This document shows positions 21,196 through 54,465 of a DNA stretch of 54,765 nt, piece by piece; within the stretch, counting starts at the first letter, position 1, and every line of letters begins with the position of its first letter. The stretch is from an uncultured bacterium. Its GTDB lineage: Bacteria > Patescibacteriota > Gracilibacteria > UM-FILTER-43-11. The notes under the pieces were generated by a model. It searched no databases and was not told the origin of the DNA. It was given only the letters and a program-made list of their open reading frames with translations. Location of the stretch: the NCBI GenBank assembly GCA_965369815.1, contig CBDUQS010000002.1, forward strand, positions 1 through 54,765, read 5' to 3'. The position numbers and the translations under genes were made by a program.

Positions 21196-21217
21196 AGGGT
21201 TTATTTCAAATTTATCT

Positions 21218-21253
21218 TATTATTATACCAAATTTACCCCTAAAAATCAATAC
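21218..21253 (-). promoter_or_regulatory. promoter cassette copy b, for the 996-aa gene
   Basis: The minus strand reads GTATTGATTTTTAGGGGTAAATTTGGTATAATAATA. -10 is at 21227-21222, -35 at 21250-21245, and the TTG start at 21195. Confidence 0.75.
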
Positions 21254-21270
21254 TATATAAAGCAAGTTTC

Positions 21271-21413: not shown

Positions 21414-21460
21414 ATTAGTTGAACAAATTATTTATACATGAACAATTTTTGTATACAACA

Positions 21461-34292: not shown

Positions 34293-36914
34293 TTAATTAA
34301 CGTTGTTTTTTTGAACAATTTTTCGCTTGTGATGATAGAGGAAGTACGCAAAAACAAATGAGAACAAAATAACCCAATTCGTCTCAGGGCCTGTTTTATC
34401 GGTGCTAGGCACACGACTCAATTGATCCCGATGAATATTTTGATCGAAAGACCCAGAACTAGGAGGATTCACCTGTCCACTGTCATAAGGGATTGGTGAA
34501 GGAGCAGAAGGACGGAATCCAGCACCAGAAGGCATTGCTAGAACTTCCTGAGAAAGAGGTGAAATTTGCTGACCATTAACATCCAGCGCTGCCACCGAAA
34601 AATAATAAGGAACATTGTTAATCAAATCATAAACGGTAGCCGATGTACGATTATCCGCCGTTACAATCGAATCATTGTACTGCATAGGAGCAAAGCCCAT
34701 CGAAATACGATAGTAATAAGCCTGAACTCCTGGGAATTGAGGCCATGAAAGTGATACAGAGCTATCGAATGGAATGGCTTGAATCTGATTAACAGTTGAA
34801 CCTGAAAAAGGATTGTTATAAGGATTGTTATTTGGATCAAATACAGGATTTTGATTTTGATTTGAATCAACAACAGGAACTTCAGGCTCTGGCTCAATAT
34901 TACAAGTTAAACCAGACCACCCTTCATCACATTCACAAACTCCTTCGCTACAAACACCATAGTCTCCACATTGAATATTTTCACAAAGGTCAGGAGCAAT
35001 CGGTGTTACAGCAATGGTCACACTCTTTTCTTCACTCTCCAATCCTTGGCTATCCACAGCGGTAACCGCAATAAAATACTGGGTTTCGTTGTTAAGACCA
35101 CGAAGCTCCCAAGCAGGAGTATCATCTTGTGTATCCATTGTCTGATCCATACTCTCCATTTGAGCCCCATAATAAAGACGATAATGCTGAACCGGTCGTT
35201 CATGAGATTCAAGTGAAGTCCATTCCAACTGAACGAAAGAATCACCAACAATACCTTCAAGACCTTCTACCTGAGGAGGGCTATTGGGCTTGGGTGTCAA
35301 AACTTCAATAATTCCTTTGTTGGTAAATTCACCGCGATTCGAAAGAGAATCAAGTAAAATCACATCCACAGGAAATTGACCATCTTGAACGGGTGAAACT
35401 ACGGTCACTTCATAGGTTCCAGGATCGGTTTCATTCATAAACTCTTCAACGCCTTGAACACGAACTTTTGCCTCTTCAAGGCCTGGTTCAGAAGTTAAAG
35501 AAATAGAAACTTGAGTGCCAGGAACCACAGGTCCATCGACGTCCATTTCAAATGAATTCAAAACGGGTGGAAGTGTATCAATAGTAACTGTAATTGCTTT
35601 AGAAACTTCGCTATTTTCAGTCATCACATAAAACACATGAACACTGCTTTCAAGATTCTGAACCTCAAAGCTGAAAAACCCGTCTGCATCCGTTTCTGTA
35701 TCTCCAATCTTCACATCGTTATCAAAAACCTTAAGGTTAATGTTCTCATTCCCCTGCCCTGTTAAAATAACCAAATTACTTCCCAGTTCCGATCCATCTC
35801 CAGGAGATTTAATCATAATATCATCAGAAGTTGGCGATTGAACAACAGACTGTTCTGGAACCACTTCAATAGAATATTCACCAGCAATCTTAAAGCTGCT
35901 TTTATCAAAAATTTGAACCACCTGATTACCAAGCTTTGTGAATTCCAAAGAGAGATCAAAAGTAAATTTACCCTGATCAGAAGCTTTAAAAGTATATTCA
36001 CCATTACTCGGTAAAATTGCATTGTCATCTTCAGGAACTGAAATAAGAATCGTTCCCGTATAGTTTTTAGCGGTATTATTATCGTTATCTTGAGCCACTA
36101 CGGTCATTGAAAGCTGTTCACCCACCTTAACTGTAGAAGGAAGTCCCTGGATAGAAAAATGATCCACAGGGCCAGGTAAAACATCACCATCTCCTCCAAT
36201 GTCTGCTTTCAAAAGATCGATAAATGAATTATTGGAAACCTTTGGAGCAACGGGGGTAAAAAACACAACCTCCTCTCGATCGCTCAAAACCTGATTCATC
36301 GTCACATCCATCGCCGTAAAAACCGAAACTCCAGGAAAATTTGAAGTGACTTTAAAATTCGTTCGTCCATTCTGATCCGTCACCCCTTCCTGTAAAACTT
36401 CAATACTGTCTTCTGGGCGACTGGAAATCAATTTAACTAAATGATCTTTAATTGGATTACGGTACTGATCGTAAAGCGTTACCACCAAAAAGGTTACATC
36501 ACTACCAGCCTCTACCATCTGTACAGTGCTTCGAAGTGAAGACTGGGAAGCAGAAACAGAATCTGGATAAACCGTGAAAATTGACTGAGGAGAAGAATTA
36601 TCCGAACCTGGATAAACCACCGCTGACCTATAAGATCCCGCAATCTTAGTCTGATGACCAAAGAAATCAGTTTTAGCTACCCCATCCATATCCGCCTGAG
36701 CAGGAATTTGAATCACAGCACCATCGGGTTTCTCCACCACAAATCGCACATCCTGATAAGGATCCACGAGCGACGTACGAAGCGCAGACGGGTAGCCTGC
36801 AACGGTATCAGTCGCATACACCTGAACTGGTAGAAAATCAGCCGAAACAGTTGGCATAAAAATCGCTAAAGCGATCATGGAAATAAAAAAGTTTTTTAAT
36901 GTTTGGAATTTCAC
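34293..36914 (-). CDS. giant tail-anchored surface protein: Big/Ig-like domains, FN3 - EGF-like - FN3, C-terminal TM
   Basis: 873 aa, GTG start, signal peptide MIALAIFMPTVSA. Invasin-type Ig block (VTFLVVTLYDQYRNPIKDHLV...TDQNGRTNFKVTS) and two FN3-like units. 6-Cys CENIQCGDYGVCSEGVCECDEGWSGLTC and TM WVILFSFVFAYFLY. Promoter cassette copy c. Confidence 0.85.
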   Translation of the reverse strand: MKFQTLKNFFISMIALAIFMPTVSADFLPVQVYATDTVAGYPSALRTSLVDPYQDVRFVVEKPDGAVIQIPAQADMDGVAKTDFFGHQTKIAGSYRSAVVYPGSDNSSPQSIFTVYPDSVSASQSSLRSTVQMVEAGSDVTFLVVTLYDQYRNPIKDHLVKLISSRPEDSIEVLQEGVTDQNGRTNFKVTSNFPGVSVFTAMDVTMNQVLSDREEVVFFTPVAPKVSNNSFIDLLKADIGGDGDVLPGPVDHFSIQGLPSTVKVGEQLSMTVVAQDNDNNTAKNYTGTILISVPEDDNAILPSNGEYTFKASDQGKFTFDLSLEFTKLGNQVVQIFDKSSFKIAGEYSIEVVPEQSVVQSPTSDDIMIKSPGDGSELGSNLVILTGQGNENINLKVFDNDVKIGDTETDADGFFSFEVQNLESSVHVFYVMTENSEVSKAITVTIDTLPPVLNSFEMDVDGPVVPGTQVSISLTSEPGLEEAKVRVQGVEEFMNETDPGTYEVTVVSPVQDGQFPVDVILLDSLSNRGEFTNKGIIEVLTPKPNSPPQVEGLEGIVGDSFVQLEWTSLESHERPVQHYRLYYGAQMESMDQTMDTQDDTPAWELRGLNNETQYFIAVTAVDSQGLESEEKSVTIAVTPIAPDLCENIQCGDYGVCSEGVCECDEGWSGLTCNIEPEPEVPVVDSNQNQNPVFDPNNNPYNNPFSGSTVNQIQAIPFDSSVSLSWPQFPGVQAYYYRISMGFAPMQYNDSIVTADNRTSATVYDLINNVPYYFSVAALDVNGQQISPLSQEVLAMPSGAGFRPSAPSPIPYDSGQVNPPSSGSFDQNIHRDQLSRVPSTDKTGPETNWVILFSFVFAYFLYHHKRKIVQKNNVN

Positions 36915-36951
36915 GGGTTTATTTGGTTTAATTTGTTTTTATTTAAATCTT

Positions 36952-36985
36952 TATATTATACCAAATTTCTCTCTAAACATCAATC
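36952..36985 (-). promoter_or_regulatory. promoter cassette copy c, for the 873-aa surface protein gene
   Basis: The minus strand reads GATTGATGTTTAGAGAGAAATTTGGTATAATATA. It shares 23 nt perfectly with copy a. The GTG start is at 36914. Confidence 0.75.
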
Positions 36986-37039
36986 ATATATAGGGGTATA
37001 AAACAAGATAAGTCAAATACGTCAATATCTTTTGGATTC

Positions 37040-41186: not shown

Positions 41187-42248
41187 TCAAATTTTCAAAA
41201 TCCTCAATTCCTTCGAAACCGCTCCCGTCAAAACCTCCACCTTTCCTTTCTCGTTCACATAAACCATATCCTCAATACGAACCCCACCTAAGTGATCCAA
41301 GTAGATCCCCGGCTCAATGGTAAACAGCATCCCAGGCTGAATAATGGTTTTTGATCGCTCTGTTACATTCGGGTCTTCATGAACCTCTAAACCCACTCCA
41401 TGACCAGTAGAATGCCCGAATCGATCCGCGTAGCCCGCTTTCTCAATCACCAATCGTGCCGCTCGATCGACAGTACTAAATTTAACACCCAATTTAATCG
41501 CCTCAATGGCCGCTTGATTAGCTTCCAAAACAGCTGTATAAATTTTTTGTTCAACAGCGGTGGGCTTCTTGGTATAAAACACTCGCGTCATATCCGTCAT
41601 ATATCGCTGATAACGAATCCCAAAATCAATCAAAACGTTCTCCCCTTTTTTCAACTTATTCGGCTCCTTCTGATGATGAACGTCCGCCGTATTTTTTCCA
41701 AAACTGATAATGGGAGTGAAAGAAAACTTATCCGCTCCAAGTTTTCTACAAATAGAAAATAAATTCCATTCCATTTCGTCCTCAGATTGTCCGATTTTGA
41801 TGGTTTTAACAAACTGTTCAAAAGCTTTATTAGCAATATTCACTGCCTTTCGAATCACTTTGATCTCATCCTTGCCTTTAATCATCCGCATTTGCTCCAC
41901 CAAACCCGAAACGGGTTTCAATCGAACTCCATCTAAGGCCTTTTTGTAATCCAAAAAACGAGCATGAGTCATATGCTCATCTTCAATGCCCAAATTTTTA
42001 AAGCGTCCCAAAAGTTTTTTAAGCCCCCCCTTCTGATCATAGACCTCAATTTTTTTTGGAATTTGTTTTTTAGCCGAACGAAGATAGCGAAAATCCGTGA
42101 TCAGCACCGCTTTTTTAGGGGTGATTAAAAGCCGCCCATTCGTTCCTGCAAAACCACACAGATAATAAATATTCTGTGGTTTTGAGATCAAAACTGCACT
42201 CAATTTATTGGTTCGAAGCTGTGTTTGAATGACTTGAATTCTTTTCAT
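41187..42248 (-). CDS. M24-family Xaa-Pro aminopeptidase/dipeptidase
   Basis: 353 aa. Creatinase-like N-domain, metal ligands in VLIDFG...D, HSTGHGVGLEVHE, FTIEPGIY and VRIEDMV. Confidence 0.88.
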   Translation of the reverse strand: MKRIQVIQTQLRTNKLSAVLISKPQNIYYLCGFAGTNGRLLITPKKAVLITDFRYLRSAKKQIPKKIEVYDQKGGLKKLLGRFKNLGIEDEHMTHARFLDYKKALDGVRLKPVSGLVEQMRMIKGKDEIKVIRKAVNIANKAFEQFVKTIKIGQSEDEMEWNLFSICRKLGADKFSFTPIISFGKNTADVHHQKEPNKLKKGENVLIDFGIRYQRYMTDMTRVFYTKKPTAVEQKIYTAVLEANQAAIEAIKLGVKFSTVDRAARLVIEKAGYADRFGHSTGHGVGLEVHEDPNVTERSKTIIQPGMLFTIEPGIYLDHLGGVRIEDMVYVNEKGKVEVLTGAVSKELRILKI

Positions 42249-43363: not shown

Positions 43364-43445
43364 CCGAATAGTGGACCGAATAGTGGACCAAATTGTTGTA
43401 TGGCAAACCACTATACGGTGCACAATACGGCCCACAAGCCGAAAT
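43364..43445 (+). repeat. long imperfect palindromic element, copy B
   Basis: ccgaatagtggaccgaatagtggaccaaattgttgtatggcaaaccactatacggtgcacaatacggcccacaagccgaaat, located between purC and purE. Confidence 0.8.
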
Positions 43446-43471: not shown

Positions 43472-43921
43472 ATGCTAGTACCTATTCTAATGGGATCAAA
43501 ATCCGACGAAGAGCACGCTCGCAAAATAGCGGGACATTTAGGTAAATTCGGTGTCAAAGCAGAACTTTACGTCGCTTCTGCCCACAAAGTACCTGAACTG
43601 GTTTTAGATATTGTGAATGACTTCAATAAATCCAGTGAAGAAATCTGCTACATCACGATCGCCGGACGATCTAATGGCCTTTCCGGAGTCGTTTCTGCTA
43701 GTGCTATCCATCCTGTCATCGCCTGCCCACCTTTTAGTGATAAAGCGGATTATCTAGCCAACATTCATTCCTCCACCATGATGCCAAGCGACACGCCAGC
43801 AATGGTTGTGGTCGACCCACAAAACGCCGCCATGGCTGCCATCCGAATTCTCGCTCTTACCGACAAAAAGCTACGAAAACAAGTCGTGCAGCATATCAGC
43901 GAAATTAAGGAAAGCTTTTAA
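43472..43921 (+). CDS. purE: PurE, class II-like (AIR carboxylase type)
   Basis: 149 aa. ILMGSKSDEEHA, ASAHKVPE (SAHK as in human PAICS; E. coli has SAHR), AGRSNGLSGVVSA...PVIACPP (PAICS-like; class I has AGGAAHLPGM). Confidence 0.85.
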   Translation: MLVPILMGSKSDEEHARKIAGHLGKFGVKAELYVASAHKVPELVLDIVNDFNKSSEEICYITIAGRSNGLSGVVSASAIHPVIACPPFSDKADYLANIHSSTMMPSDTPAMVVVDPQNAAMAAIRILALTDKKLRKQVVQHISEIKESF

Positions 43922-43927
43922 AATTTA

Positions 43928-44029
43928 GGAATTTGCATTTTTGATTTTGCAATCAATTTAGCATTTTCAAACTTAACAATTAAATGAGGAAATCTTGAAA
44001 TGAAAAATTAAATACCAAATGCAAATTCC
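43928..44029. repeat. 11-bp perfect inverted repeat bracketing the purE-purB spacer, with flanking opposed heptamer arrays
   Basis: GGAATTTGCAT (43928-43938) pairs with ATGCAAATTCC (44019-44029). gaatttg cattttt gattttg lies on the left and caaatt(c) caaaata caaaata on the right. Confidence 0.6.
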
Positions 44030-44072
44030 AAAATACAAAATAAATCGTATTATTAAATAAAGTAAAACAAGT

Positions 44073-45413
44073 ATGATTACATCTCTATCACCCCTAGATG
44101 GTCGTTACGCCAGTAAAGTCAGTGAACTCAATGAATACTTCTCCGAATACGGACTCATTAAACATCGCCTGATTGTTGAAATTAGTTTTTTTATGATGCT
44201 TTCCTCTGAACCAGGAATCAAAGAGCTCCCTCCTTTTTCAGATAAAGAGCTTAAGATTCTTGAAAATTTGATAAAAAACTTTGATGAAAAAGAAGCGGAA
44301 GCAGTGAAAAAGATCGAAAGAGTTACCAATCACGATGTAAAAGCGGTGGAATACTATATTAAAAAGAAACTTGAAAAAACCACGCTTAAAAAGCATTTGG
44401 AATTCATTCATTTCGCCTGCACTTCCGAGGACATCAACAATCTCTCAATCGCACTCATGATTCAAGGAGCGGGAAATAATGTACTTTTACCAACCATGAA
44501 AGAGTTGAACAAAAAAGTTGTACAACTTGCAAAGAAATGGCAAAAGGTTCCCATGCTCAGCCTCACTCACGGACAACCCGCCTCCCCCACCACCGTAGGC
44601 AAAGAGTTTCTGGTTTTCGCTAAACGACTAGAACGGCAGATGAAAGCATTGGATAAACAAGAAACATTGGGGAAAATCAACGGAGCAACAGGAAATTTCA
44701 ACGCTCATTTATCCGCTTATCCAAAGGTAAATTGGGAAAGGTTGAGCAAAAATTTTGTTCAGAAACTCGGCTTAACTTGGAACAGTCACACTACTCAAAT
44801 TGAATCACATGATTTCCAATCTGAAATTTATGACACAATGGCCCGATTCAACACCATTCTAATCGATCTAAACCGCGACGTTTGGACATACATCAGCCGT
44901 GGAGCTTTCAAACAAAGCGTCGTTGCGGGAGAAGTGGGATCTTCAACCATGCCCCACAAAGTAAACCCAATCGACTTTGAAAACTCTGAAGGGAATCTAG
45001 GGCTCGCCAATGCACTCCTTCGACATCTATCCGAAAAACTACCGATCAGCCGAATGCAAAGAGACCTAACCGACAGCACTGTTCAGAGAAATATTGGAAC
45101 CGCTTGGGGTTATAGTATTTTGGCTTATAAAAGCGCATTAAAAGGGTTAAGTAAGCTAGAGCTGAACAAAAAAGTTGTACAAGAAGAGCTGGATAAAAAC
45201 TGGGCACTGCTCGCTGAACCCATTCAAACGGTTATGCGAAAACACGCCGTTCCCAAGGCCTACGAGAAGCTTAAAGAACTCACTCGTGGAAAAGAGGTGA
45301 ACAAAAAAGTTGTACAAGAATTCGTTTCAAGCCTAAAGATTCCAAAAGAAGATAAAGAAAGGCTACTAAAGCTCTCCCCTTCTACTTATATTGGGATTGC
45401 AGATAAGCTTTAA
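44073..45413 (+). CDS. purB: adenylosuccinate lyase
   Basis: 446 aa, collinear with E. coli PurB: SPLDGRY, TNHDVKAVEY, HFACTSEDINN, THGQPASPTT, GSSTMPHKVNPIDFENSEGN. Confidence 0.95.
   Translation: MITSLSPLDGRYASKVSELNEYFSEYGLIKHRLIVEISFFMMLSSEPGIKELPPFSDKELKILENLIKNFDEKEAEAVKKIERVTNHDVKAVEYYIKKKLEKTTLKKHLEFIHFACTSEDINNLSIALMIQGAGNNVLLPTMKELNKKVVQLAKKWQKVPMLSLTHGQPASPTTVGKEFLVFAKRLERQMKALDKQETLGKINGATGNFNAHLSAYPKVNWERLSKNFVQKLGLTWNSHTTQIESHDFQSEIYDTMARFNTILIDLNRDVWTYISRGAFKQSVVAGEVGSSTMPHKVNPIDFENSEGNLGLANALLRHLSEKLPISRMQRDLTDSTVQRNIGTAWGYSILAYKSALKGLSKLELNKKVVQEELDKNWALLAEPIQTVMRKHAVPKAYEKLKELTRGKEVNKKVVQEFVSSLKIPKEDKERLLKLSPSTYIGIADKL
44506..44525 (+). repeat. purB intragenic 20-mer, copy 1
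   Basis: TGAACAAAAAAGTTGTACAA preceded by GAGt. Encodes ELNKKVVQ. Confidence 0.9.
45163..45182 (+). repeat. purB intragenic 20-mer, copy 2
   Basis: Identical 20-mer preceded by GAGc, in the same codon phase. Encodes ELNKKVVQ. Confidence 0.9.
45298..45317 (+). repeat. purB intragenic 20-mer, copy 3
   Basis: Identical 20-mer preceded by GAGg, in the same codon phase. Encodes EVNKKVVQ. Confidence 0.9.
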
Positions 45414-45424
45414 CTTATTATTTT

Positions 45425-46177
45425 ATGAAAAAGATTTTTTTATTTTTAGGCGGTCTTGTTTTAGGCGGTCTTTTGGTTGGACTTTATTTTAATAACACTC
45501 AGCAAATAAAAGAAAAAAGGACAGAAAAACCAACGCTTGAAGTGGAAAAAGAAGTTGTAAATAAGTCAGTTTCTAAAGCAAATATACAGATTGAATACAA
45601 GACAGAAACCTCTCCAGACGGACTATATTCTGTAACCATAGCTGATGCAGGATGCTGTAGTAGCGAACAACAAGAGAAAGAATTCATAAGAGTAATCCAT
45701 AATGAAACAGGTGAAGAAAGGCTTAAATTAACAATAAATGAGATTGAGGGCATATCCACAAATGAAAACATCATTAGCTGGTCAGTAAATGAAAAAACTT
45801 TATGGATTCAAGTAAACAGCATTTATACAATTCTTGCTTTTTATAAAATTGACCTAGAAACATGGGGGCTAGAAAAATATGATTTTAAAATACCAATATC
45901 AAGCGAAGCTAAATTCAATCCGCACAACGGGATAGTCCTTTATGAAGATAGGCCAATGTGGCAAGACCCCCCACCACAAGAAGAAATTGATAACTCTTCA
46001 TGTAAAATGGCTACTTATAATCTTCGTACAAAAGAAGTAAAGGTTTTAGAGGAGGTAAAACCAGCAACTGCAATTAATTGCTTTAATTATGAATGGGATA
46101 CAAGTTCAAAAAATATACTAAGATTCAGTCGCCCAAACGAAAAACTAAAGGATTATATCTTTAATGACTCAGAATAG
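45425..46177 (+). CDS. hypothetical N-terminally anchored extracytoplasmic protein (250 aa)
   Basis: TM IFLFLGGLVLGGLLVGLYF followed by a beta-rich domain. No motif recognised. Confidence 0.65.
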   Translation: MKKIFLFLGGLVLGGLLVGLYFNNTQQIKEKRTEKPTLEVEKEVVNKSVSKANIQIEYKTETSPDGLYSVTIADAGCCSSEQQEKEFIRVIHNETGEERLKLTINEIEGISTNENIISWSVNEKTLWIQVNSIYTILAFYKIDLETWGLEKYDFKIPISSEAKFNPHNGIVLYEDRPMWQDPPPQEEIDNSSCKMATYNLRTKEVKVLEEVKPATAINCFNYEWDTSSKNILRFSRPNEKLKDYIFNDSE

Positions 46178-46207
46178 TTAAAAAAATGAAATTAATCGAT
46201 TAAAAAT

Positions 46208-46429
46208 ATGAAAGAATCTCTCATCAAAGCCGGGAAATATCAGCACTACAAAGGAAACTTCTATAAAGTAATCGGAGTTGCCAAGCATTCTGAAAATCAG
46301 GAAAATATGGTGGTGTATAAATCACTAGACGATGATCATCAACTCTGGGTTCGCTCTTATGATGAGTTCATAGAAAAAGTAAGCAAAGAAGGAGAACCTC
46401 CAATTCCTCGTTTTAGATTCATTGGATAA
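46208..46429 (+). CDS. DUF1653-like small protein
   Basis: 73 aa. YQHYKGNFYKVIGVAKHSENQENMVVYKSL...LWVRSYDEF matches the DUF1653 pattern from memory. Confidence 0.65.
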   Translation: MKESLIKAGKYQHYKGNFYKVIGVAKHSENQENMVVYKSLDDDHQLWVRSYDEFIEKVSKEGEPPIPRFRFIG

Positions 46430-46458
46430 GAATAATCCAAGTTGCTGCCAGATTACTA

Positions 46459-46489
46459 TCAAATTGCCAGCCATTTGAAAGCAATTTGA
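46459..46489. promoter_or_regulatory. palindromic motif TCAAATTGC-N13-GCAATTTGA upstream of the aminotransferase gene
   Basis: 9-bp perfect arms at 46459-46467 and 46481-46489. The same motif with the same spacing occurs at 48397-48427. Confidence 0.45.
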
Positions 46490-46523
46490 AGGCTATTTGA
46501 AAACCACTTGAACTATTTGAAAT
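46471..46523 (+). repeat. degenerate ~11-nt tandem array (NNATTTGAANN x5)
   Basis: ccatttgaaag caatttgaagg ctatttgaaaa ccacttgaa ctatttgaaat, ending about 10 nt from the ORF-track ATG at 46533. Confidence 0.6.
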
Positions 46524-46532
46524 TTAAATAAT

Positions 46533-47777
46533 ATGAATAATAGATCTGCCCTAACAGCCGCAGGCCATCAATTTCGGGAACACAAAATGAGTCGTCGTGT
46601 AAAAAACATGATTGTTTCTCCAATCAAAGAAATGATGATGTTGGCTGCTCAACTTGAAAACCCGTTTTTACTGGCTCAAGGAATCCCCGCAGAAGATACG
46701 CCCGATCATATCAAGCAAGCCATTATCGAAGCCATTCAAGGTCCTCAAGCCTCCAAATATTCGATGTTATCGGGAATGAAAGAATGTCGAGAAGCCGTCG
46801 CTAAGCGATACAAAAGGTATTACAACGTTGATGTTGATTCTGATTCCGAAATTGGAATCACTGCGGGTGGGATGGAAGCGTGCATGATCACCTGTATGGC
46901 CACGATCGACCCAAGCGATGAAGTGATACTGACCGCTCCTTGCTTCTCTTCACACATCGAACAGATTCTCGCCTGCGAAGGAATACCAGTCCTCGTGCAA
47001 ACCAATGAAAAAGAAGGATGGATTTTGGATGTAGAAGCGATTCGAAAGGCAATCAATCCAAAAACCAAAGCCATTTACGTCACCAACCCAAGTAATCCAA
47101 CAGGCGCCGTATTCCCAGAGAATCAGGTGCGCGAATTGGCAAAAATCGCTTTGGAAAACGATCTGTTTATTTTTGCCGATGAAACGTACGACTTTTTAAC
47201 ATATAATAACAAACCATTCTTCAGCTTCTGTCAGATCCCAGAACTCAAAAATAATTTGATTCTAATCGGCAGTAGCTCCAAAGAGCATCGAATGACTGGC
47301 TACCGCCTTGGATGGGTAATTGCTCCGAATGATATTTTAAATCAGCTCTTCAAACTTCACGACGCTACCACAGTATGCGCTTGCGTGGTCTCGCAATTCG
47401 GATTCATTGCCGCCATCAACGGCCCACAAGATTCTGTAAAAGAGCTAAAAAAAGGAATGCAGGAACGTCGAGATCTGATCTGCGACCGCCTCGATAAAGT
47501 ACCTCACCTATTTAGATATTATAAAAAACCAGAAGGCGCTTACTACATTCTACCGGAAATCGTATTCCCTCACGAAAGTTCCATTCAGGTCGCCATGGAT
47601 ATACAAGCCGCCACCAGCGTCGTCACCGTTCCAGGAATCGCATTCGGCCCTGCCAGCGAAGGTCATATACGCTTCTCATTCGGCGGTGGAGCAAGTCGCG
47701 GACCAAAGGGAAAGGAACTAATCAACGAAGCCTTCGACCGACTGGAAGAATGGGGTAAGCAATTTAAAAATTCTTAA
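46533..47777 (+). CDS. class I/II PLP-dependent aminotransferase (aspartate aminotransferase-like)
   Basis: TNPSNPTG, FADETYD and PLP-Lys block GSSSKEHRMTGYRLGW. The start may instead be ATG at 46587 (MSRRVKNM). Confidence 0.85.
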   Translation: MNNRSALTAAGHQFREHKMSRRVKNMIVSPIKEMMMLAAQLENPFLLAQGIPAEDTPDHIKQAIIEAIQGPQASKYSMLSGMKECREAVAKRYKRYYNVDVDSDSEIGITAGGMEACMITCMATIDPSDEVILTAPCFSSHIEQILACEGIPVLVQTNEKEGWILDVEAIRKAINPKTKAIYVTNPSNPTGAVFPENQVRELAKIALENDLFIFADETYDFLTYNNKPFFSFCQIPELKNNLILIGSSSKEHRMTGYRLGWVIAPNDILNQLFKLHDATTVCACVVSQFGFIAAINGPQDSVKELKKGMQERRDLICDRLDKVPHLFRYYKKPEGAYYILPEIVFPHESSIQVAMDIQAATSVVTVPGIAFGPASEGHIRFSFGGGASRGPKGKELINEAFDRLEEWGKQFKNS

Positions 47778-47805
47778 TTCTTAATTCTTAATTCTTAATT
47801 CTTAT
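47771..47805 (+). repeat. heptamer tandem array TTCTTAA x5
   Basis: Four perfect copies plus TTCTTAT. The array contains the aminotransferase stop codon and ends 3 nt before the ATG at 47809. Confidence 0.9.
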
Positions 47806-47808
47806 AAA

Positions 47809-48369
47809 ATGATTATCGGACTCACTGGCCCAATGGCCTCCGGCAAAACCACTATTGTTGAAGCGCTTAAGAAAGAGGGCTTTGAACACATAACTCTATC
47901 CGATGCAATCCGCGAAGAAGCAACTAAACGAGGTGTTCCTGAAGAAAGAGAACATTTAATGGAAGTCGGACAATCCCTTCGGGAAGAGTTTGGCGCAGGA
48001 GTCCTTGCGATACGTGCCATTGAAAAAACGAAAGAAAGTCCAGATAAAAAATGGCTTATTGATGGCATACGAAACCCCGCTGAAATCGATGAATTACGAA
48101 AAATTCCAGGATCCATTGTTATCGCGAATACCGCTCCAGAAAAAATGATTATCGAAAGAATCCTCTCTCGAAAACGATCCGATGATACCCTGGAAGAAGA
48201 AGCGATTCGCCACAAACTTCGTCGTGAATGGGGTGAAGGTGAACCCGAAGACGGACAGCAAGTGGGAAAATGTGTCGCAATGGCAGATTATGTGTTTGAA
48301 AACATCGTCCCAATCGAGAAAGTTGAAGAAGAATTCATGAAGCTGTATAATCAAATAACCAATCAATAA
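47809..48369 (+). CDS. P-loop nucleotide/nucleoside kinase (dephospho-CoA kinase / UPF0200-like fold)
   Basis: 186 aa. Walker A IIGLTGPMASGKTT and DGIRNPAEI (NMP-binding-like). Specific substrate cannot be called. Confidence 0.7.
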   Translation: MIIGLTGPMASGKTTIVEALKKEGFEHITLSDAIREEATKRGVPEEREHLMEVGQSLREEFGAGVLAIRAIEKTKESPDKKWLIDGIRNPAEIDELRKIPGSIVIANTAPEKMIIERILSRKRSDDTLEEEAIRHKLRREWGEGEPEDGQQVGKCVAMADYVFENIVPIEKVEEEFMKLYNQITNQ

Positions 48370-48396
48370 AAATCTCATATTGCTTTCAAATAGCCT

Positions 48397-48427
48397 TCAA
48401 ATTGCTAGCGATCTGAGAGCAATTTGA
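48397..48427. promoter_or_regulatory. second copy of the palindromic motif TCAAATTGC-N13-GCAATTTGA, upstream of the dCMP deaminase gene
   Basis: Arms at 48397-48405 and 48419-48427. The 55-nt block 48384-48438 is the reverse complement of 46448-46502 (23-nt perfect plus 18/20 segments). Confidence 0.45.
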
Positions 48428-48456
48428 TAGCCATCTGGAATTTAAATAAATAAATT

Positions 48457-49077
48457 ATGAATGATTACCCTCATCCACGCCCATCCAAAGATCAGTACTA
48501 CCTCGATTTAGCTAAAAGCGTTTGTAAACGTTCTACTTGTACGAAGGTAGAAATCGGAGCCGTGGTCATACGCGAAGATCAAGTGGTTGCCACCGGTTAT
48601 TGCGGTGCCCCTCGAGGAACCAAGAGTTCTCAGGAGCACAACTTTTGCTTACGAAAACAACTTGGAATTCCCTCAGGTCAACGTTACGAAATCTGTCGAT
48701 CGGTTCACGCCGAACAAAACGCCATCATCAACGCCGCTCGCTCAGGAACCGCATTACTTGGAGGTGATATGTATATTTACGGAAAAATTGAAGGAGATGA
48801 CAGCACGGAGGTTTTAGATGCCTTTCCTTGTTTCATTTGTAAAAAAATGCTGATCAATTGCGGTCTCAAACGCGTGATCTGTAGCTTAAAAGAAGGGGGA
48901 TATAAAATTTTTGAAGTGGATCAATGGGTGGAAGATTGGCGTAAAGGAGATATTATCGACGATAAATTTCAATATGGAATAGACGCCGAAACCGGAAAAC
49001 CAGCAATAAACGATCAACCAATTAAAATTTCTGCTACCATTAAAGAAAAAATTGCCAAAGAGAAAGAATCAGCCTAA
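48457..49077 (+). CDS. dCMP deaminase (ComEB-type) with C-terminal extension
   Basis: 206 aa. Zinc motifs VHAEQNAI and PCFICKKMLINCG. Confidence 0.88.
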   Translation: MNDYPHPRPSKDQYYLDLAKSVCKRSTCTKVEIGAVVIREDQVVATGYCGAPRGTKSSQEHNFCLRKQLGIPSGQRYEICRSVHAEQNAIINAARSGTALLGGDMYIYGKIEGDDSTEVLDAFPCFICKKMLINCGLKRVICSLKEGGYKIFEVDQWVEDWRKGDIIDDKFQYGIDAETGKPAINDQPIKISATIKEKIAKEKESA

Positions 49078-49140
49078 AATCACCAAGTAAAAGCATCTGA
49101 ATCCTGCTATCACGGGATAAGCTGATTGAAGAACGTCGAT

Positions 49141-49185
49141 TCAAACCACTATTCGGCCCACGATACGGCCCACCATTCGATTAGT
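49141..49185 (+). repeat. half copy (right arm only) of the palindromic element, copy C
   Basis: tcaaaccactattcggcccacgatacggcccaccattcgatt matches the right arms of copies A and B. It lies in the ileS leader. Confidence 0.6.
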
Positions 49186-49274
49186 AGACCAATCCGGAGA
49201 CCTCACTCCGTCATCAAATTAAATTAAGTATTAGCCTAGGTGGTAACTTTTCTCACTTTGCTCACCAAATGACG

Positions 49275-49310
49275 ATTGTCATTCCGAGCAAAGCCGAGGA
49301 ACCGAGGCAC
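49275..49310 (+). repeat. GTCATTCC-family element, single arm
   Basis: attgtcattccgagcaaagccgaggaaccgaggcac, preceded by AATGAC (tail-to-head remnant). It creates the spurious ileS N-terminal extension. Confidence 0.65.
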
Positions 49311-49333
49311 TCATTGTTATTATTGAGTGTTTT
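49308..49333 (+). promoter_or_regulatory. weak hairpin plus T-run just upstream of the ileS start (attenuator-like)
   Basis: CACTCA (49308-49313) pairs with TGAGTG (49324-49329), then TTTT. The stem is AT-rich and of low stability. Confidence 0.3.
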
Positions 49334-49353
49334 AATTTGTAATTTGCAATTAA
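49333..49353 (+). repeat. heptamer array TAATTTG x2 plus CAATTAA
   Basis: Ends 2 nt before the preferred ileS ATG at 49356. Confidence 0.65.
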
Positions 49354-49355
49354 TC

Positions 49356-52300
49356 ATGTTTCAGCCCGTAGACCCAAAACAATCCTTTCCAAAAATGGAA
49401 GAAGCACTACTGAAATATTGGAAAGCTGAAAAAACATTTGAAAAATCAGTCACCAAAGGAAAAAAGGACTATGTTTTTTACGATGGACCTCCATTTGCCA
49501 CCGGACTTCCTCACTACGGACACTTGCTCGCAGGAACTTTAAAGGACGTCATGCCACGATACTTCACCATGCAAGGATACCGAGTGGATCGAAAATGGGG
49601 ATGGGACTGCCATGGATTACCTGTAGAAAATGAAGTGGAAAAAGAGCTAAAGTTAGGAAGTAAAACCGATATTGAAGAATATGGTATAGATAAATTCAAC
49701 GAATACTGCCGAAAGATCGTTTTGAAATACGCCGATGAATGGAAAGGAACCGTGGAGCGTATGGGTCGATGGGTCGATATGGAAAACGACTACAAAACTA
49801 TGGACCCAGAATATATGGAAAGTATTTGGTGGGTATTTAAAAGCTTATGGGATAAAAAATTGATTTACGAAGGGAATAAAGTGGTTCCTTACTGCATTCG
49901 CTGTGCCACTCCCCTTTCCAACTTTGAAACCAATCAGGGATACAAAGACAAGCAAGACCCCGCATTAACGGTTAAATTTGAACTCGTAAATGAACCAGGA
50001 ACCTATTTACTCGCTTGGACAACGACTCCTTGGACACTTCCAAGTAATTTAGCCGTTGCGATGGGACCAGAACTTACCTATGCAAAAATCAAAGATTCAA
50101 ATGGTGAAAAGTATATTATTGCACTCGATCGCATCCCGAATTACTACAAAAGCCCAGACGATTACGAAGTACTGGAAGAGTTTTTAGGCAAAACCTTAGA
50201 GGGGGAAAAATACACTCCGCTCCTCCCCTACTACGCCGATAAACCCGAAGAAAAAGTATTCACGGTAACCATGGGTAATTTTGTAACCCTTGAAAGTGGA
50301 ACCGGCCTCGTTCACATGGCACCCTTTGGTGAAGATGATATGGCAATGCTAAAAAAAATGGAGATTGAAGTGGTTCATCCACTCGACGCCGAAGGGAAAT
50401 TCAACAGCGACGTCAAAGAATTTAAAGGAAAGGATGTTTTCACGGCGAATCCAGAGATCATCAAAAAGCTGAAAGATGAAAATAAAGTCGTGAAGCACGA
50501 AACTTGTAATCACAGCTACCCTTTCTGCTGGCGTTGCGATACTCCATTGATTTACCGCCCCATTTCCACATGGTTCGTAAAAGTGGAACAAATGAGAGAA
50601 AAACTTTTAAAAACCAATAAAGAAATTAACTGGATTCCCGATCACCTAAAAGAAGGACGATTCGGGAAATGGCTGGAAGGCGCCAGGGATTGGGCGGTAT
50701 CAAGAAATAGATACTGGGGAGCTCCCCTGCCCATTTGGCGTTGCGACGACTGTGAAGATTTAAAAGTATTCGGTTCCATTAAAGAGCTAGAAAAAGAAAG
50801 TGGTGAAACAGTGAAAGATCTTCACAAACATTTTGTGGATAAAATTGAATTAAAATGTAAATGTGGCAAAAAAATGATCCGCGTCCCCGAAGTTCTCGAC
50901 TGCTGGTTTGAATCGGGTTCTATGCCATACGCCCAACTACACTACCCATTTGAGAACAAGAAAAGGTTTGAAGAAAACTTCCCTGCCCAGTTCATTGCGG
51001 AAGGATTGGATCAAACCCGAGGATGGTTTTATACCCTTCATGTGCTGGCCAACTCACTTTTCGATAAACCCGCCTTTAAAAATGTAATTGTAAATGGAAC
51101 GATGCTCGCCGAAGACGGACAGAAAATGAGCAAGCGACTGAAGAACTATCCAGATCCAAATCAAGTCATGCACGATCATGGAGCAGACGCCCTGCGCTTT
51201 TATTTAATGAATTCTCCCGTCGTTAAAGCCGATGACATGCGCTTCAGCGAAAAAGGGGTATCCGACGTGGTACGAAACATGATTCTGCCCATATGGAATG
51301 CTTATAGCTTCTTCGTGACCTATGCCAATATCGACCAATGGGCTCCAGAAAAGAAGAAAAAGGATTCAGACAACAAGCTTGATCAATGGATCTTAGAAGA
51401 GTTGAACAAATTAATTGTTCAAGAAACAGAATATATGGAAAGTTATGACCTTCAGAAAGCCAGTAACCTAATTTACAAATTCGTCGATAACCTCACCAAC
51501 TGGTACATCCGCCGTTCCCGAAGACGTTTCTGGAAATCGGAAGACGATGGGGATAAAAAGATGGCCTATCAAACGCTTTACACCGTCCTCACCAATCTCT
51601 GCCAAATCGTCGCTCCCTTCATGCCATTCGTAAGCGAAGAGATTTACCGAAACTTAACAGGCGAAGAATCAGTTCATTTATCTAAATATCCATCCTCAAC
51701 CGTAGGTCAGGATAATTATCCTGACCTACGGCAGGAAATGTTCCTCACCAAAACCATCGTTTCCCTTGGTCTCGCCGGTCGAGCGAAAACAAAGATAAAA
51801 GTACGTCAGCCACTCTCCAAAGTTCAAATCGCTCTCGGGGATCAATACGACTCAAAGCTGCTGAACGATCAAATGGATATTGTTAAAGAGGAATTGAATG
51901 TAAAAGAAGTGGAGGTTATTAAAAATCCAAGCGACCTTGCCACCGTGATTGCCAAGCCGAACGCCAAATTACTCGGACCTAAATACGGAAAAGACGTTCA
52001 AAAAATAATCATGGAAGCTAAATCGGGTAACTTTGAACGCCTTAAAAACGGAAATTTAAAAGTATTGGATTTCGAGCTTCTACCGGAGGAGATGGAAATC
52101 GCCTACTTAGGTAAAGACGGCACCGACGTAGAAACCGAAGAAGGAATTTTGGTGGCTTTAGATACTAAAATAACCCCCGAACTAGAGCAAGAAGGCTTAG
52201 CCCGTGATCTCGTCCGACAAATTCAAGACCTACGAAAAGCTGCGGACTATAAAGTGGATGACCGCATCCAAATTGCTCTCGTTAATGTTGATAAAAACCT

Positions 52301-52421
52301 TCTCAAAAATCACGGTGATTACATAAAATCGGAAACACTGGCCACTTCGATTGAAGATGACTTAGAAGACGCTGATCAATTCGCTGAATATGAAGGAACG
52401 ACTATTAAAATAAGACGGTAG
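49356..52421 (+). CDS. ileS: isoleucyl-tRNA synthetase, type 2 (eukaryote-like)
   Basis: HIGH = HYGHLLAG, KMSKS = KMSKRL, WAVSRNRYWGAPLPIW, CP1 editing domain present. The ORF-track start at 49269 translates a repeat element (VIPSKAEEP), so ATG at 49356 (MFQPVDPKQ) is preferred. Confidence 0.95.
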   Translation: MFQPVDPKQSFPKMEEALLKYWKAEKTFEKSVTKGKKDYVFYDGPPFATGLPHYGHLLAGTLKDVMPRYFTMQGYRVDRKWGWDCHGLPVENEVEKELKLGSKTDIEEYGIDKFNEYCRKIVLKYADEWKGTVERMGRWVDMENDYKTMDPEYMESIWWVFKSLWDKKLIYEGNKVVPYCIRCATPLSNFETNQGYKDKQDPALTVKFELVNEPGTYLLAWTTTPWTLPSNLAVAMGPELTYAKIKDSNGEKYIIALDRIPNYYKSPDDYEVLEEFLGKTLEGEKYTPLLPYYADKPEEKVFTVTMGNFVTLESGTGLVHMAPFGEDDMAMLKKMEIEVVHPLDAEGKFNSDVKEFKGKDVFTANPEIIKKLKDENKVVKHETCNHSYPFCWRCDTPLIYRPISTWFVKVEQMREKLLKTNKEINWIPDHLKEGRFGKWLEGARDWAVSRNRYWGAPLPIWRCDDCEDLKVFGSIKELEKESGETVKDLHKHFVDKIELKCKCGKKMIRVPEVLDCWFESGSMPYAQLHYPFENKKRFEENFPAQFIAEGLDQTRGWFYTLHVLANSLFDKPAFKNVIVNGTMLAEDGQKMSKRLKNYPDPNQVMHDHGADALRFYLMNSPVVKADDMRFSEKGVSDVVRNMILPIWNAYSFFVTYANIDQWAPEKKKKDSDNKLDQWILEELNKLIVQETEYMESYDLQKASNLIYKFVDNLTNWYIRRSRRRFWKSEDDGDKKMAYQTLYTVLTNLCQIVAPFMPFVSEEIYRNLTGEESVHLSKYPSSTVGQDNYPDLRQEMFLTKTIVSLGLAGRAKTKIKVRQPLSKVQIALGDQYDSKLLNDQMDIVKEELNVKEVEVIKNPSDLATVIAKPNAKLLGPKYGKDVQKIIMEAKSGNFERLKNGNLKVLDFELLPEEMEIAYLGKDGTDVETEEGILVALDTKITPELEQEGLARDLVRQIQDLRKAADYKVDDRIQIALVNVDKNLLKNHGDYIKSETLATSIEDDLEDADQFAEYEGTTIKIRR

Positions 52422-52455
52422 TCCTCTTTTGTCATCCTGAGAGAAGCCGAAGGAT
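52421..52455 (+). repeat. GTCATTCC-family element, single arm, immediately after the ileS stop
   Basis: gtcctcttttgtcatcctgagagaagccgaaggat. The GTCCTCTT(TT)GTCAT lead-in is shared with 21342-21355. Confidence 0.65.
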
Positions 52456-52525
52456 TAAAAGATAATTTCAACTTTGAAAAATCGAATAATCTGATAAGAT
52501 GAAGATTGATTTATAAACGGTAAAA

Positions 52526-52906
52526 ATGAGCTTCCTACGAAGACTACTCGCCCACATCGTCGCCAACGCCGCCGCCCTTTACTTTGTAACCGAGTTATTG
52601 AGTGGAAACTTTGTAATAACCGGTAGCTACAAAGGGTATTTAATCGCCGCAGTACTTTTCGGTATTTTAAATGGAGTGATCAAACCAATCCTAAAACTCC
52701 TTTCACTTCCATTCATTCTCATCAGTGCAGGGGTCTTTATTTTGGTGATCAATGTATTCCTGGTTTGGTTTGCCAAATACGCACTCGATATTCTCCAATT
52801 TGAAGGGGTACGGATCTTGATTGAAGGAGGTCCTGCCACTTACCTTTACGCTGGCCTCACAATCAGTATTATCAACATGATCATCACTTGGCTACTTAAA
52901 AAATAG
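52526..52906 (+). CDS. phage-holin-family-4/DUF360-like small membrane protein
   Basis: 126 aa, 4 TM. GVIKPILKLLSLPFILISAGVFILVINVFLVW matches the family pattern from memory. Confidence 0.65.
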   Translation: MSFLRRLLAHIVANAAALYFVTELLSGNFVITGSYKGYLIAAVLFGILNGVIKPILKLLSLPFILISAGVFILVINVFLVWFAKYALDILQFEGVRILIEGGPATYLYAGLTISIINMIITWLLKK

Positions 52907-52911
52907 ATTGA

Positions 52912-53121
52912 ATGAATTGGAAATTAATCCTATTTTTCATTATCACTTTGTTCACACTTTTGTACTTAGTGGAATTTTGGGAAAACCGCCACACCAAAAT
53001 AAACTTTCAAATGTTCGGACAGAAGATTGAAATGACTCTCGGCCTCCTCCTCTTCGCCGTATTCATCGACGGCTCCATCCTAACCTTAATCATCCTTTGG
53101 TTATTAGGAGTTTTTGGATAA
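52912..53121 (+). CDS. small two-TM membrane protein (LapA/DUF1049-like)
   Basis: 69 aa with two hydrophobic helices. Lies 5 nt downstream of the previous gene. Confidence 0.5.
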   Translation: MNWKLILFFIITLFTLLYLVEFWENRHTKINFQMFGQKIEMTLGLLLFAVFIDGSILTLIILWLLGVFG

Positions 53122-53130
53122 TTAACCTTT

Positions 53131-53228
53131 TTTTGTCATTTCGAGCCTGTCGAGAAATCCCTTTGCTAAATACCACCCATAATAGAAATAAGGATAGGGA
53201 TTCCTCCGCATGGGTCGGAATGACAAAA
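53131..53228. repeat. GTCATT-family element, inverted pair with diverged cores (MITE-like, 98 nt)
   Basis: Left arm TTTTGTCATTTCGAGCCTGTCGAGAAATCCC, right arm GGGATTCCTCCGCATGGGTCGGAATGACAAAA. The termini TTTTGTCATT/AATGACAAAA are inverted. It lies between convergent genes. Confidence 0.7.
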
Positions 53229-53250
53229 TAAGAGTAAGACTAAAAACCCA

Positions 53251-53285
53251 CAATCTAAAATCTGAAATCTGAGATCAGAGATATT
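53251..53285 (+). repeat. heptamer array (A/C)A(A/G)ATCTR x5
   Basis: caatcta aaatctg aaatctg agatcag agatatt, abutting the pilT stop. Confidence 0.75.
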
Positions 53286-54465
53286 ATTGTTCTTCCTTTT
53301 GAATGAATTGGTTCAATTGCTCCTGATTAATGACACCACGCTCAGAAAGCTGGTAAGCATAGCTATCCATGGTGATCATCCCCTGCTCTGCAGAAGATTG
53401 GATGGCGGTTCGAAGTTGAACAAAATTACCACGCTTAATCACATTCCGAATACTGTCATTCATAAACATAAACTCAAACACTGCAATCAAACCAGGTTGA
53501 TCCTGACGCTGAACCAAATCCTGCGCCAAAGCACTAGTTAGGTTGTCAGAAAGACGATCCTGAGCTTGTTTTCGAAGATCCTGAGGATAGAGGCTAATAA
53601 TACGCTCAATTGTCTGAGGAACATCACGAGTGAGCATAGAAGCAATCACTAAATGACCCGTTTCAACCAAATTAAGTAATTTATCAAAGGTTTCGAAGTC
53701 GTTCACCTCATCCAGCATCACAATGTTCGCATCCTCACGAATTGCAGACTGCAAAGCATTTTCTTTTAAAAGAGTATCTTTTCCTACCTCTCTCTGAGTA
53801 AACATCGACTTTTCATTTTCAAACACATATTCAATTGGATTTTCGATGGTAAGAACATGTTGAACAAAATTTTTGTTCACATGCTGAAGCATTGACTGAA
53901 TGGTAGTCGATTTACCAGACCCAGCAGTTCCACAAACTAAAATAAGTCCTTCACGAAGGCCAAGAAAACCTTTCACGGCCTCTGGGACCCCCAATTCCTC
54001 TAAAGTTGGAATGTTTTTTGAAATCATACGCATAACACAAGCCAATTTACCTTTTTGGAAAAACGCATTCACACGAAAGTTAACTCCATTGGTATGAGTG
54101 AAAGAAAAGTCAATTTCACGATCCTTTTCAAGTCGAGCACCCTCCTCTTCACTAGAAATCATCAAATTAAGCATAGCCTCTGTGTCTTCTTTAGTAAGAG
54201 CCTCAATATTTTCAACAAAAATAATTTTACCCCCCACACGAAGAGCAACACGCGATCCCTCACGAAAGTGAACATCAGACGCTCCTTTTTCAATACATAA
54301 ATTAACCAACTGATCCAAAGTAATTTTAACGTCTGAAGACCCTTCAGCTACTGAAGTAGTAGTATCAGCGGCGTCAGATGTAGCAACAACTGGGGCTTGG
54401 GGCTCAACTGCCTGAGGGGCAGGAGTGATAGCGGGCTGAGAAGGATTAATGTTTGCGTCTTCCAT
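53284..54465 (-). CDS. pilT: PilT-family type IV pilus retraction ATPase with Ala/Pro/Thr-rich N-terminal extension
   Basis: 393 aa. DVHFREGSRVALRVGG, Walker A GTAGSGKSTT, Asp-box AIREDANIVMLDE, His-box region GHLVIASMLTRD (variant of GHLVFGTLHT). Confidence 0.85.
   Translation of the reverse strand: MEDANINPSQPAITPAPQAVEPQAPVVATSDAADTTTSVAEGSSDVKITLDQLVNLCIEKGASDVHFREGSRVALRVGGKIIFVENIEALTKEDTEAMLNLMISSEEEGARLEKDREIDFSFTHTNGVNFRVNAFFQKGKLACVMRMISKNIPTLEELGVPEAVKGFLGLREGLILVCGTAGSGKSTTIQSMLQHVNKNFVQHVLTIENPIEYVFENEKSMFTQREVGKDTLLKENALQSAIREDANIVMLDEVNDFETFDKLLNLVETGHLVIASMLTRDVPQTIERIISLYPQDLRKQAQDRLSDNLTSALAQDLVQRQDQPGLIAVFEFMFMNDSIRNVIKRGNFVQLRTAIQSSAEQGMITMDSYAYQLSERGVINQEQLNQFIQKEEQ

Follow-up and report, generated by a model that had tools for sequence, protein, structure and literature searches.

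Why should one and the same 20-nt sequence stand three times, letter for letter, within the reading frame of an essential enzyme? The question is raised by purB, the gene for adenylosuccinate lyase, at 44073..45413 on the + strand of a 54,765-nt stretch of DNA (here called the window, meaning always the whole of what was analysed: NCBI GenBank assembly GCA_965369815.1, contig CBDUQS010000002.1, positions 1 to 54,765), which comes from an uncultured bacterium whose genome is assigned to Candidatus Peregrinibacteria. The answer towards which we lean, with somewhat more confidence than doubt, is that the repeated sequence is a selected cis element, most likely a binding site for a dimeric DNA-binding protein, which has been multiplied and homogenised by short-tract gene conversion.

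A pattern search of the window places TGAACAAAAAAGTTGTACAA exactly at 44506-44525, 45163-45182 and 45298-45317, all on the + strand, and the original observation of three perfect copies, made without database searches (the sequence-only reading), is correct and highly non-random. The host gene encodes 446 amino acids and carries four copies of the motif in all, as described below; its homologues contain PF00206 and PF08328 and are annotated at source as adenylosuccinate lyase, the nearest relatives of the window's PurB being found in Candidatus Peregrinibacteria and the Patescibacteria group. The three exact copies share one codon phase in the open reading frame (ORF), each follows directly on GAG and one further nucleotide, and the peptides concerned are ELNKKVVQ, ELNKKVVQ and EVNKKVVQ at what will be called sites 1, 2 and 3 respectively (copies 2 and 3 have as much as 28 nt in common, with 1 mismatch). 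If up to three mismatches are allowed the window yields 5 matches to the 20-mer, where shuffled sequence would lead one to expect 0.02.

It had further been proposed, by comparison with unrelated segments of equal length in E. coli PurB, that the motif replaced ancestral sequence rather than being inserted into it. In an alignment with E. coli-type PurB (loci L024 and L027) the three sites do fall, with no gaps, on QLIDGIKDL, EVNRDHLLD and RVDAEGMKQ, and the length of the protein is near-constant (445-449 amino acids in most relatives, with or without motif copies); together these two facts argue that sequence was replaced. Nor does selection on the protein explain the identity of the codons, a point on which the sequence-only reading was also right. 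Using the codon frequencies of the window (Asn AAC 0.30, Leu YTG 0.25, Lys AAA 0.73, Val GTT 0.45 and GTA 0.17, Gln CAA 0.55), the probability of obtaining exactly these codons for a peptide [L/V]NKKVVQ is about 0.0017 per site (0.25 x 0.30 x 0.73 x 0.73 x 0.45 x 0.17 x 0.55), and the peptide alone therefore cannot account for two more identical copies. General codon-pair bias was considered as a source of the TGAAC unit and rejected, as no bias favouring G before AAC, or AAC before AAA, is present in the window.

What, then, is the repeated sequence? The sequence-only reading had pointed to a palindrome within the motif, and TTGTACAA is indeed there, but it had missed that the dyad spans a whole 21-mer: the 20-mer is the local form of a 21-nt quasi-palindrome, TTGAACAA-N5-TTGTWCAA, which in the window reads TTGAACAA-AAAAG-TTGTACAA and is quasi-palindromic because TTGAACAA is the reverse complement of TTGTTCAA. 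The consensus of the element is YTG-ARC-AAA-AAW-DTT-RTW-CAR. Searching the window for TTGAACAA-N5-TTGTTCAA with up to three mismatches gives 8 matches where 0.93 would be expected, and among all the inverted repeats of 8-5-8 layout in the window the only half-site that recurs is that of this palindrome family. Six of the copies are strong, four of them in purB, one in ileS and one in an ATPase gene, so that the count of three, although right as far as it went, was incomplete; all six stand in the same codon phase (the TGA in the motif closes one of the other two).

Within purB, site 1 (TTGAACAAAAAAGTTGTACAA, residues L145-Q151) lies at 44505..44525 and appears to be a recently converted copy, making with its flanks a 14-nt perfect palindrome, AAGTTGTACAACTT; site 4 (TTGAGCAAAAATTTTGTTCAG, L224-Q230, peptide LSKNFVQ), at 44742..44762, is the diverged fourth copy; site 2 (CTGAACAAAAAAGTTGTACAA, L364-Q370), at 45162..45182, has the motif in all 16 close relatives sampled; and site 3 (GTGAACAAAAAAGTTGTACAA, V409-Q415), at 45297..45317, is patchily present among relatives. 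All four are on the + strand. The palindrome search adds a perfect palindrome in ileS, TTGAACAA-ATTAA-TTGTTCAA (51402..51422, +, peptide LNKLIVQ), and a 15/16 palindrome, GTGAACAA-AAATT-TTGTTCAA (53860..53880, -, peptide VNKNFVQ), in the gene for a T2SSE-type ATPase of the secretion or pilus kind (53284-54465, - strand), where the arms extend to CATG...CATG. The two remaining matches each have 3 mismatches and are possibly due to chance: one is intergenic (21419..21439, +) and the other lies in an M24 peptidase gene in a different codon phase (41534..41554, -). All six strong copies fall within 9.4 kb (44505-53880), the other 45 kb of the window holding just these two weak matches, a concentration that may reflect either regional clustering or ectopic conversion among neighbours.

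The next question is whether the element is kept as such between species, and here the evidence comes from purB DNA of 20 Peregrinibacteria genes, including 16 closer relatives. Site 2 in these 16 genes reads YTG AAC AAA AAA RTT RTW CAR, with Asn encoded by AAC, a minor codon, in 15/16, Lys by AAA in 32/32 and Leu by TTG or CTG in 16/16 (six codons being possible). Wherever sites 1 and 3 have the full NKK motif, the TGAAC unit comes with it in all the genes sampled, and the two site-3 sequences that have Asn as AAT (VNEK in L101 and INKK in L103) also lack the preceding G. In site 4 the Leu is always TTG and the Phe always TTT, and the fourth codon toggles between AAT (Asn) and AAA (Lys), never AAC or AAG, such that the nucleotide class is kept and the amino acid changed.

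These impressions can be put on a quantitative footing. A scan of the frequency with which the same codon is used among pairs sharing the same residue, normalised for codon usage (gene mean 0.09, sd 0.10), ranks site 4 first in the gene with an excess of 0.53, followed by codons 350-356 (0.41), site 2 (0.35) and site 1 (0.31), with site 3 eighth (0.21); synonymous sites elsewhere in purB are near saturation, the same-codon fraction being 0.48 observed vs about 0.39 expected. When synonymous changes are counted on the tree against columns of the same residues, the shortage of change is significant for site 4 (p=0.0002), site 2 (p=0.0016) and codons 350-356 (p<0.0002), and not so for sites 1 (p=0.25) and 3 (p=0.21), at both of which motif and non-motif lineages are mixed. 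The ileS copy is likewise kept, in L014 (at 6847) and in L007 (at 1558); relative to L007, 0/9 same-residue codons differ within the motif vs 53% (408/776) elsewhere in the gene, and the sole change in the motif is non-synonymous and lies in the spacer. Outside the clade the picture is one of absence: at none of the four sites do the purB genes of other phyla (54-59% identity) show anything but ordinary, divergent sequence, and the palindrome has 0 matches in 311 kb of outgroup loci. Comparison among Peregrinibacteria species thus shows the element to be evidently kept as nucleotides, against codon preference, which implies selection on it as DNA or RNA rather than as peptide. That this conservation lies within a transcribed coding region is a feature it has in common with intragenic operator sites.

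Codons 350-356 (TTG GCT TAT AAA AGC GCA TTA; 45120..45140, +), some 20 nt upstream of site 2, are an additional constrained stretch; the region (GCT TAY AAA AGC ... TTA AAA) includes a small GCUU-ACAA-AAGC hairpin.

How the copies came to be so numerous, and so alike, can be approached through their distribution on the tree. The alignment of purB orthologues that had been proposed beforehand shows varying copy numbers in clade members and none in other phyla. Across the 20 Peregrinibacteria genes there are 1-4 copies per purB. Among 120 proteins of the wider comparison, sites 4 and 2 form the usual pair in the crown clade (54/120), site 1 is present in 24, site 3 in 12 and all four together in 5, and the most distant relatives, compared as proteins, have no copies at all; parsimony on a neighbour-joining tree requires 5 to 21 state changes per site. 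The number of copies in purB thus evidently ranges from 0 to 4, with what the tree shows as repeated gains and losses. Three deep relatives (L112-L114, 70-73% identity) have the motif at site 1 only, sites 2, 3 and 4 being ordinary. In L113 and L114 this copy is the perfect palindrome TTGAACAA-AAAAA-TTGTTCAA, in L112 it has one wobble-compatible change (CAG), and in these deep relatives the arms of site 1 are extended to 10-13 pairs. The ancestral form of the element is, to all appearance, the perfect inverted repeat TTGAACAA-N5-TTGTTCAA.

Variation among the copies is concentrated in a hexamer at motif positions 13-18, of which the variants are GTTGTA, GTTATA, GTTATT, ATTGTA, ATTGTT and ATTACT. 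The window has GTTGTA three times, L096 (Logan ERR14790950 contig) has GTTATA three times, in three exact copies of TGAACAAAAAAGTTATACAA at the same three purB sites, and L002 and L099 have two identical copies each. Overall, 9/23 within-genome pairs of hexamers are identical, an excess that is significant when hexamers are shuffled per site across genomes (permutation, p=0.0016) and that survives the removal of L014 (p=0.003) or of the window (p=0.02). A particularly direct case is offered by the window and its closest relative L014, which are 96% identical in PurB and 90.7% identical in DNA. Between their site 1 copies there are 4 base differences, all within a pair of neighbouring codons that read GTT GTA in the window and ATT ACT in L014; the latter must be the ancestral state, since it is common to L014, L100 and L003, and the derived state is exactly that of the window's own sites 2 and 3. 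Site 1 of L096 has made a parallel change to its own variant, giving two independent cases in which site 1 matches the same genome's sites 2 and 3. The tract at site 1 is flanked by a 15-nt identity, GAGTTGAACAAAAAA, upstream and by CAA downstream.

Copies inside one genome have, then, evidently been homogenised, and we infer that the process is short-tract, RecA-type intragenic gene conversion. Conversion at microhomology was one of the explanations offered by the sequence-only reading, and it fits well with the two site-1 cases and with the hexamer identities. Template switching at the quasi-palindrome was tried as an explanation of the site 1 change and set aside, as it explains at most 2/4 of the substitutions whereas conversion explains all 4. 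It must be remembered that homology of some 20-28 nt is at or below the usual minimum for RecA-dependent exchange.

In the mechanism that we would propose, the 21-bp quasi-palindromic cis element would settle in frame wherever the protein tolerates L-N-K-K-V/I-V/I-Q, and would be copied from site to site by conversion, for which the 15-nt identity GAGTTGAACAAAAAA and, at the other edge of the tract, CAA would be the seeds. A sequence-specific, probably dimeric DNA-binding protein would read it inside the transcribed region, where the site might serve as an operator or roadblock, after the manner of PurR in E. coli purB, or else in organising the nucleoid, and multiple copies would lead to stronger or cooperative occupancy. 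A protein or small-RNA binding site had been among the earlier suggestions, and the strong synonymous conservation between species is consistent with it.

A number of points weigh against this proposal and need to be set out together. No binding protein was found and no candidate regulator adjoins purB, the window's only regulator-like genes being those for a histidine kinase and a receiver-only response regulator. All the strong copies are intragenic and none lies in a promoter region, including that upstream of purC. The dyad is a perfect 8-5-8 in the deep relatives, in ileS, in L097 and in L101, but most copies at sites 2 and 3 have a degenerate right half; conservation is far lower here than on the left, with variation at positions 16 and 18 and with GTA retained even though GTT would make the better palindrome. 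Sites 1 and 3 are not significant on their own in the tree-aware test, and the DNA sample comprises 20 purB genes and only some 140 kb of clade DNA. Finally, the ancestral site 1 copies and those of site 4, ileS and the ATPase gene form stable RNA hairpins (z about -2 to -6), and the extension of the stem in L112 by G-U-compatible changes favours, for such foldable copies, the possibility considered next.

This is that the mRNA is the level of action. The element would there be a short hairpin (stem UUGAACAA/UUGUUCAA) or a linear A-rich motif, and whatever recognises it, be it a small RNA, an RNase or an RNA-binding protein, would control the stability or translation of the purB (and ileS) mRNA; conversion would still explain the identical copies. 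We think this rather unlikely, though it is to be taken seriously. The perfect palindromes at site 1 (L097, L101, L112-L114) have predicted folding energies of -8.4 to -17.9 kcal/mol, with z of -2.2 to -4.7 relative to synonymous re-codings; the ileS and ATPase copies come to -6.4 and -9.5 kcal/mol, and about half of the site 4 copies fold significantly, the only departures of site 4 from a DNA palindrome being ones that the sense RNA accommodates as G-U pairs. The stem in L112 is lengthened to 13 pairs via two G-U pairs, L101 has a compensatory replacement of C6-G16 by U6-A16 (single cases of this kind being seen in L101 only), and the left half of the element consists of three A-R-N triplets. 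Against this, site 2, which is among the best-conserved copies of the crown clade, does not fold (mean z -0.35), and nor does site 3. Frequent AAC...ATA and AAC...ATT variants set C opposite A and disrupt the central pair, GTA is favoured where GTT would pair, and the A-run of the loop is invariant, although a plain stem has no need of it. RNAalifold applied to the crown clade gives 0 to -2.9 kcal/mol, with no conserved structure and no favourable covariation term. The motif has no match in Rfam, so that a known RNA family was rejected (a gathering-threshold search of the whole window returns one tRNA only). What is common to all copies is thus sequence, with a strong left part (YTGARCAAAAA) and a weaker right part (TTRTWCAR), and not a fold, and it is for this reason that the element is read as a binding site. 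Some more specific ideas at the RNA or translational level also failed. Long-range pairing of site 2 with site 4 gives no signal, with 12/15 first/last base combinations compatible vs about 11.8 expected (tabulated by hand). Frameshifting at the A6 run is not indicated, as the heptamer A_AAA_AAG is out of phase and the shifted frames end in short unconserved tails, and an internal translation start at the NTG lacks a suitably spaced Shine-Dalgarno sequence upstream.

It is also necessary to ask whether the element need have any function. Four peptides at the starts of helices might have drifted towards similar K/N/I-rich sequences in an AT-rich genome, after which conversion would have made the copies identical, perhaps with a contribution from quasi-palindrome template switching, and the similarity between species would be a by-product. 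There is something to be said for this: conversion is well supported, ELN at site 2 is ancestral in all bacteria, and intermediate peptides (ITKESVR, INKESVR, INKKTVQ and VNKKIVQ) occur at sites 1 and 3. An AlphaFold2 model of PurB (mean pLDDT 84.8) puts N365 of site 2 just before helix 366-375 and N410 of site 3 just before helix 411-420, making both sites helix N-caps, while site 4 begins a short helix (221-231) and site 1 falls within helix 118-155. The segments that bear the motif are helical and vary among relatives, in keeping with a motif that settles only where L-N-K-K-V/I-V/I-Q is tolerated. However, the synonymous positions of the motif are near-frozen among species whose other synonymous sites approach saturation, and the codons that are frozen are minor ones; an unrelated gene, ileS, has conserved this palindrome too; and at site 4 amino acids change while the nucleotide class is kept. 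Unbiased conversion does not, as a matter of population-genetic expectation, slow substitution in a repeat family. Absence of function therefore seems to us improbable, more so than action in the mRNA.

Two further groups of explanations remain. The exact 20-mer was sought in one genome per species for 185,579 species (GTDB; 596 Gb) and occurs in 15 loci. Six are Peregrinibacteria purB genes (L002, L003, L006, L007, L012 and L014), with the 20-mer at site 2 and/or site 3, and the other 9 are single matches in unrelated genes and taxa (L4, RelA-like, cysteine desulfurase-like and others), about what chance would give for an AT-rich 20-mer. The genome of L014 has it in purB only. A metagenome scan for purB relatives contributed one close relative and 79 outgroups, which served as negative controls, and two scans of viral contigs gave single chance-level matches and no clusters, on which ground a phage or mobile origin was rejected.

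A dispersed genomic signal that happens to lie in purB, be it a DNA-uptake sequence, a target of restriction-modification or methylation, or a mobile palindrome of the REP (repetitive extragenic palindrome) or RPE (Rickettsia palindromic element) type, would be in keeping with a palindromic motif found in more than one gene, and candidate-phylum bacteria do depend on DNA uptake. We nevertheless regard it as very improbable, given the 15 loci just described, a closest relative with the 20-mer in purB alone, and six strong copies in the 55 kb of the window of which four are in one gene; the length of the gene is unchanged and nothing has been inserted. The density characteristic of uptake sequences (about one per kb, on both strands and genome-wide) was seen neither in the scan of species genomes nor in the window, and the suggestion of an uptake- or modification-type signal in the sequence-only reading is not supported. 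Its suggestion of template-directed rewriting fares no better. Diversity-generating retroelements (DGRs) are common in candidate-phylum bacteria, and the multi-base change at site 1 does look templated; on the other side, the copies are identical instead of being diversified at adenines, with no adenine-specific pattern, the window holds no template repeat of more than 28 nt, and the 40 of its ORFs that were scanned include no reverse transcriptase. An artefact of assembly, or a chimera, is contradicted by independent assemblies from NCBI, ENA, JGI and Logan that carry the motif, and assembly error is excluded, since six genomes of other species, each assembled independently, have this 20-mer at the same sites of purB. 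Rewriting and artefact taken together are scarcely to be credited.

The interest of these results goes beyond one gene. Comparative genomics has here a clean case of a nucleotide-level signal hidden in housekeeping genes, one that prevails over codon preference and leaves its mark even on the protein sequence of an essential enzyme. There is also unusually direct evidence that conversion can operate over as little as about 20 nt, between regions of one gene that are not homologous, a possible route for the multiplication of binding sites. Patescibacteria are, to our knowledge, uncultured organisms with very few recognisable regulators, whose cis-regulatory code is almost unstudied, so that identification of the ligand would give access to a regulatory or chromosome-organising system, open to testing, in a lineage with none known. 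We would go further only tentatively, to a suggestion that is more likely wrong than right, namely that this is an undescribed class of cis element peculiar to a Peregrinibacteria clade: a 21-bp palindrome confined to coding sequence, in one phase, read by a putative DNA- or RNA-binding factor and changing in number as it copies itself, through conversion of about 20 nt, into tolerant positions at the starts of helices. Regulatory sites would on this view be gained and lost by intragenic conversion, not by point mutation, and purB would act as an array of up to four of them. A caution of a practical kind is that in-frame repeats such as these can mislead inferences of protein evolution that depend on alignment.

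Some neighbouring features of the window deserve brief mention. A 79-nt repeat (87% identical) occurs at 4541-4619 and 43365-43443, directly 3' of glycosyltransferase and purC genes (+), and its copies fold as a long hairpin (-28.2 kcal/mol, z about -4) with a REP-like or terminator-like look. A 46-nt repeat (83% identical), at 21214-21259 and 36947-36992, precedes, at a short distance, two large ORFs of the - strand, 18205-21195 (no Pfam match) and 34293-36914 (an fn3/Big_1 surface protein), and may be a shared leader or promoter. Genes for a type IV secretion-like pilin (PF18895) and a TrwB/TraG-like coupling protein are found at 11350-11781 and 28522-31059, with several large ORFs between them that have no Pfam match (23255-25681 and 25986-28358); the region may encode an apparatus of conjugation or DNA-transfer type. 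As for signals of transcription near the element, a consensus scan of 43900-45600 on both strands revealed no promoter or terminator, and the motif is absent upstream of purC and between pur genes.

It remains to compare the element with systems that are already known. Close in setting is the operator of PurR, which binds within the E. coli purB reading frame and blocks elongation, according to the passage of PMC3159470 that draws on He and Zalkin 1992. The likeness consists in a palindromic, nucleotide-level site in the coding region of the same gene, at a position untied to a promoter. The differences are that PurR recognises a 16-bp LacI-type box where the present layout is 8-5-8, and that here there are 1-4 copies in purB with others in ileS and the ATPase gene, and no known repressor. 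The sequences are in any case unrelated, the PurR box ACGCAAACGTTTGCGT having 0 matches in the window with up to three mismatches. Sites of the kind bound by ParB (parS), Noc, SlmA and MatP are also short palindromes, mostly intragenic, conserved across species and sometimes clustered within about 10 kb; in comparison with parS, however, the half-sites here are oppositely oriented about a 5-bp spacer, no ParB or origin genes lie in the window, and a search with TGTTNCACGTGAAACA gave 3-mismatch matches only, at chance level and away from the motif sites. The B. subtilis PurBox, the ARG box and the operators of LexA, Rex and ArsR type do not, on an informal comparison of consensuses, fit in spacing.

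Resemblances of another sort are to elements that inhabit coding sequence. RPEs are in-frame palindromes in housekeeping genes at structurally tolerant positions, as is the present element, but they are selfish insertions of 100-150 bp that add residues, whereas here 21 nt replace codons with no change of length and are under purifying selection across species. The DNA uptake sequence (DUS) of Neisseria and the uptake signal sequence (USS) of Pasteurellaceae similarly present a fixed word in coding sequence, in a preferred frame and at positions where the peptide is tolerant; the density here is lower by orders of magnitude, and four of the six strong copies in the window are in one gene. In its mode of evolution, lastly, the element corresponds most nearly to micro gene conversion: copies are identical within a genome while orthologous copies differ between genomes, and a cluster of 4 base changes reproduces its donor exactly, with microhomology at the edges of the tract. 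The difference is in the partners, which here are not duplicated domains or paralogues but repeats of about 20-28 nt in non-homologous parts of a single enzyme.

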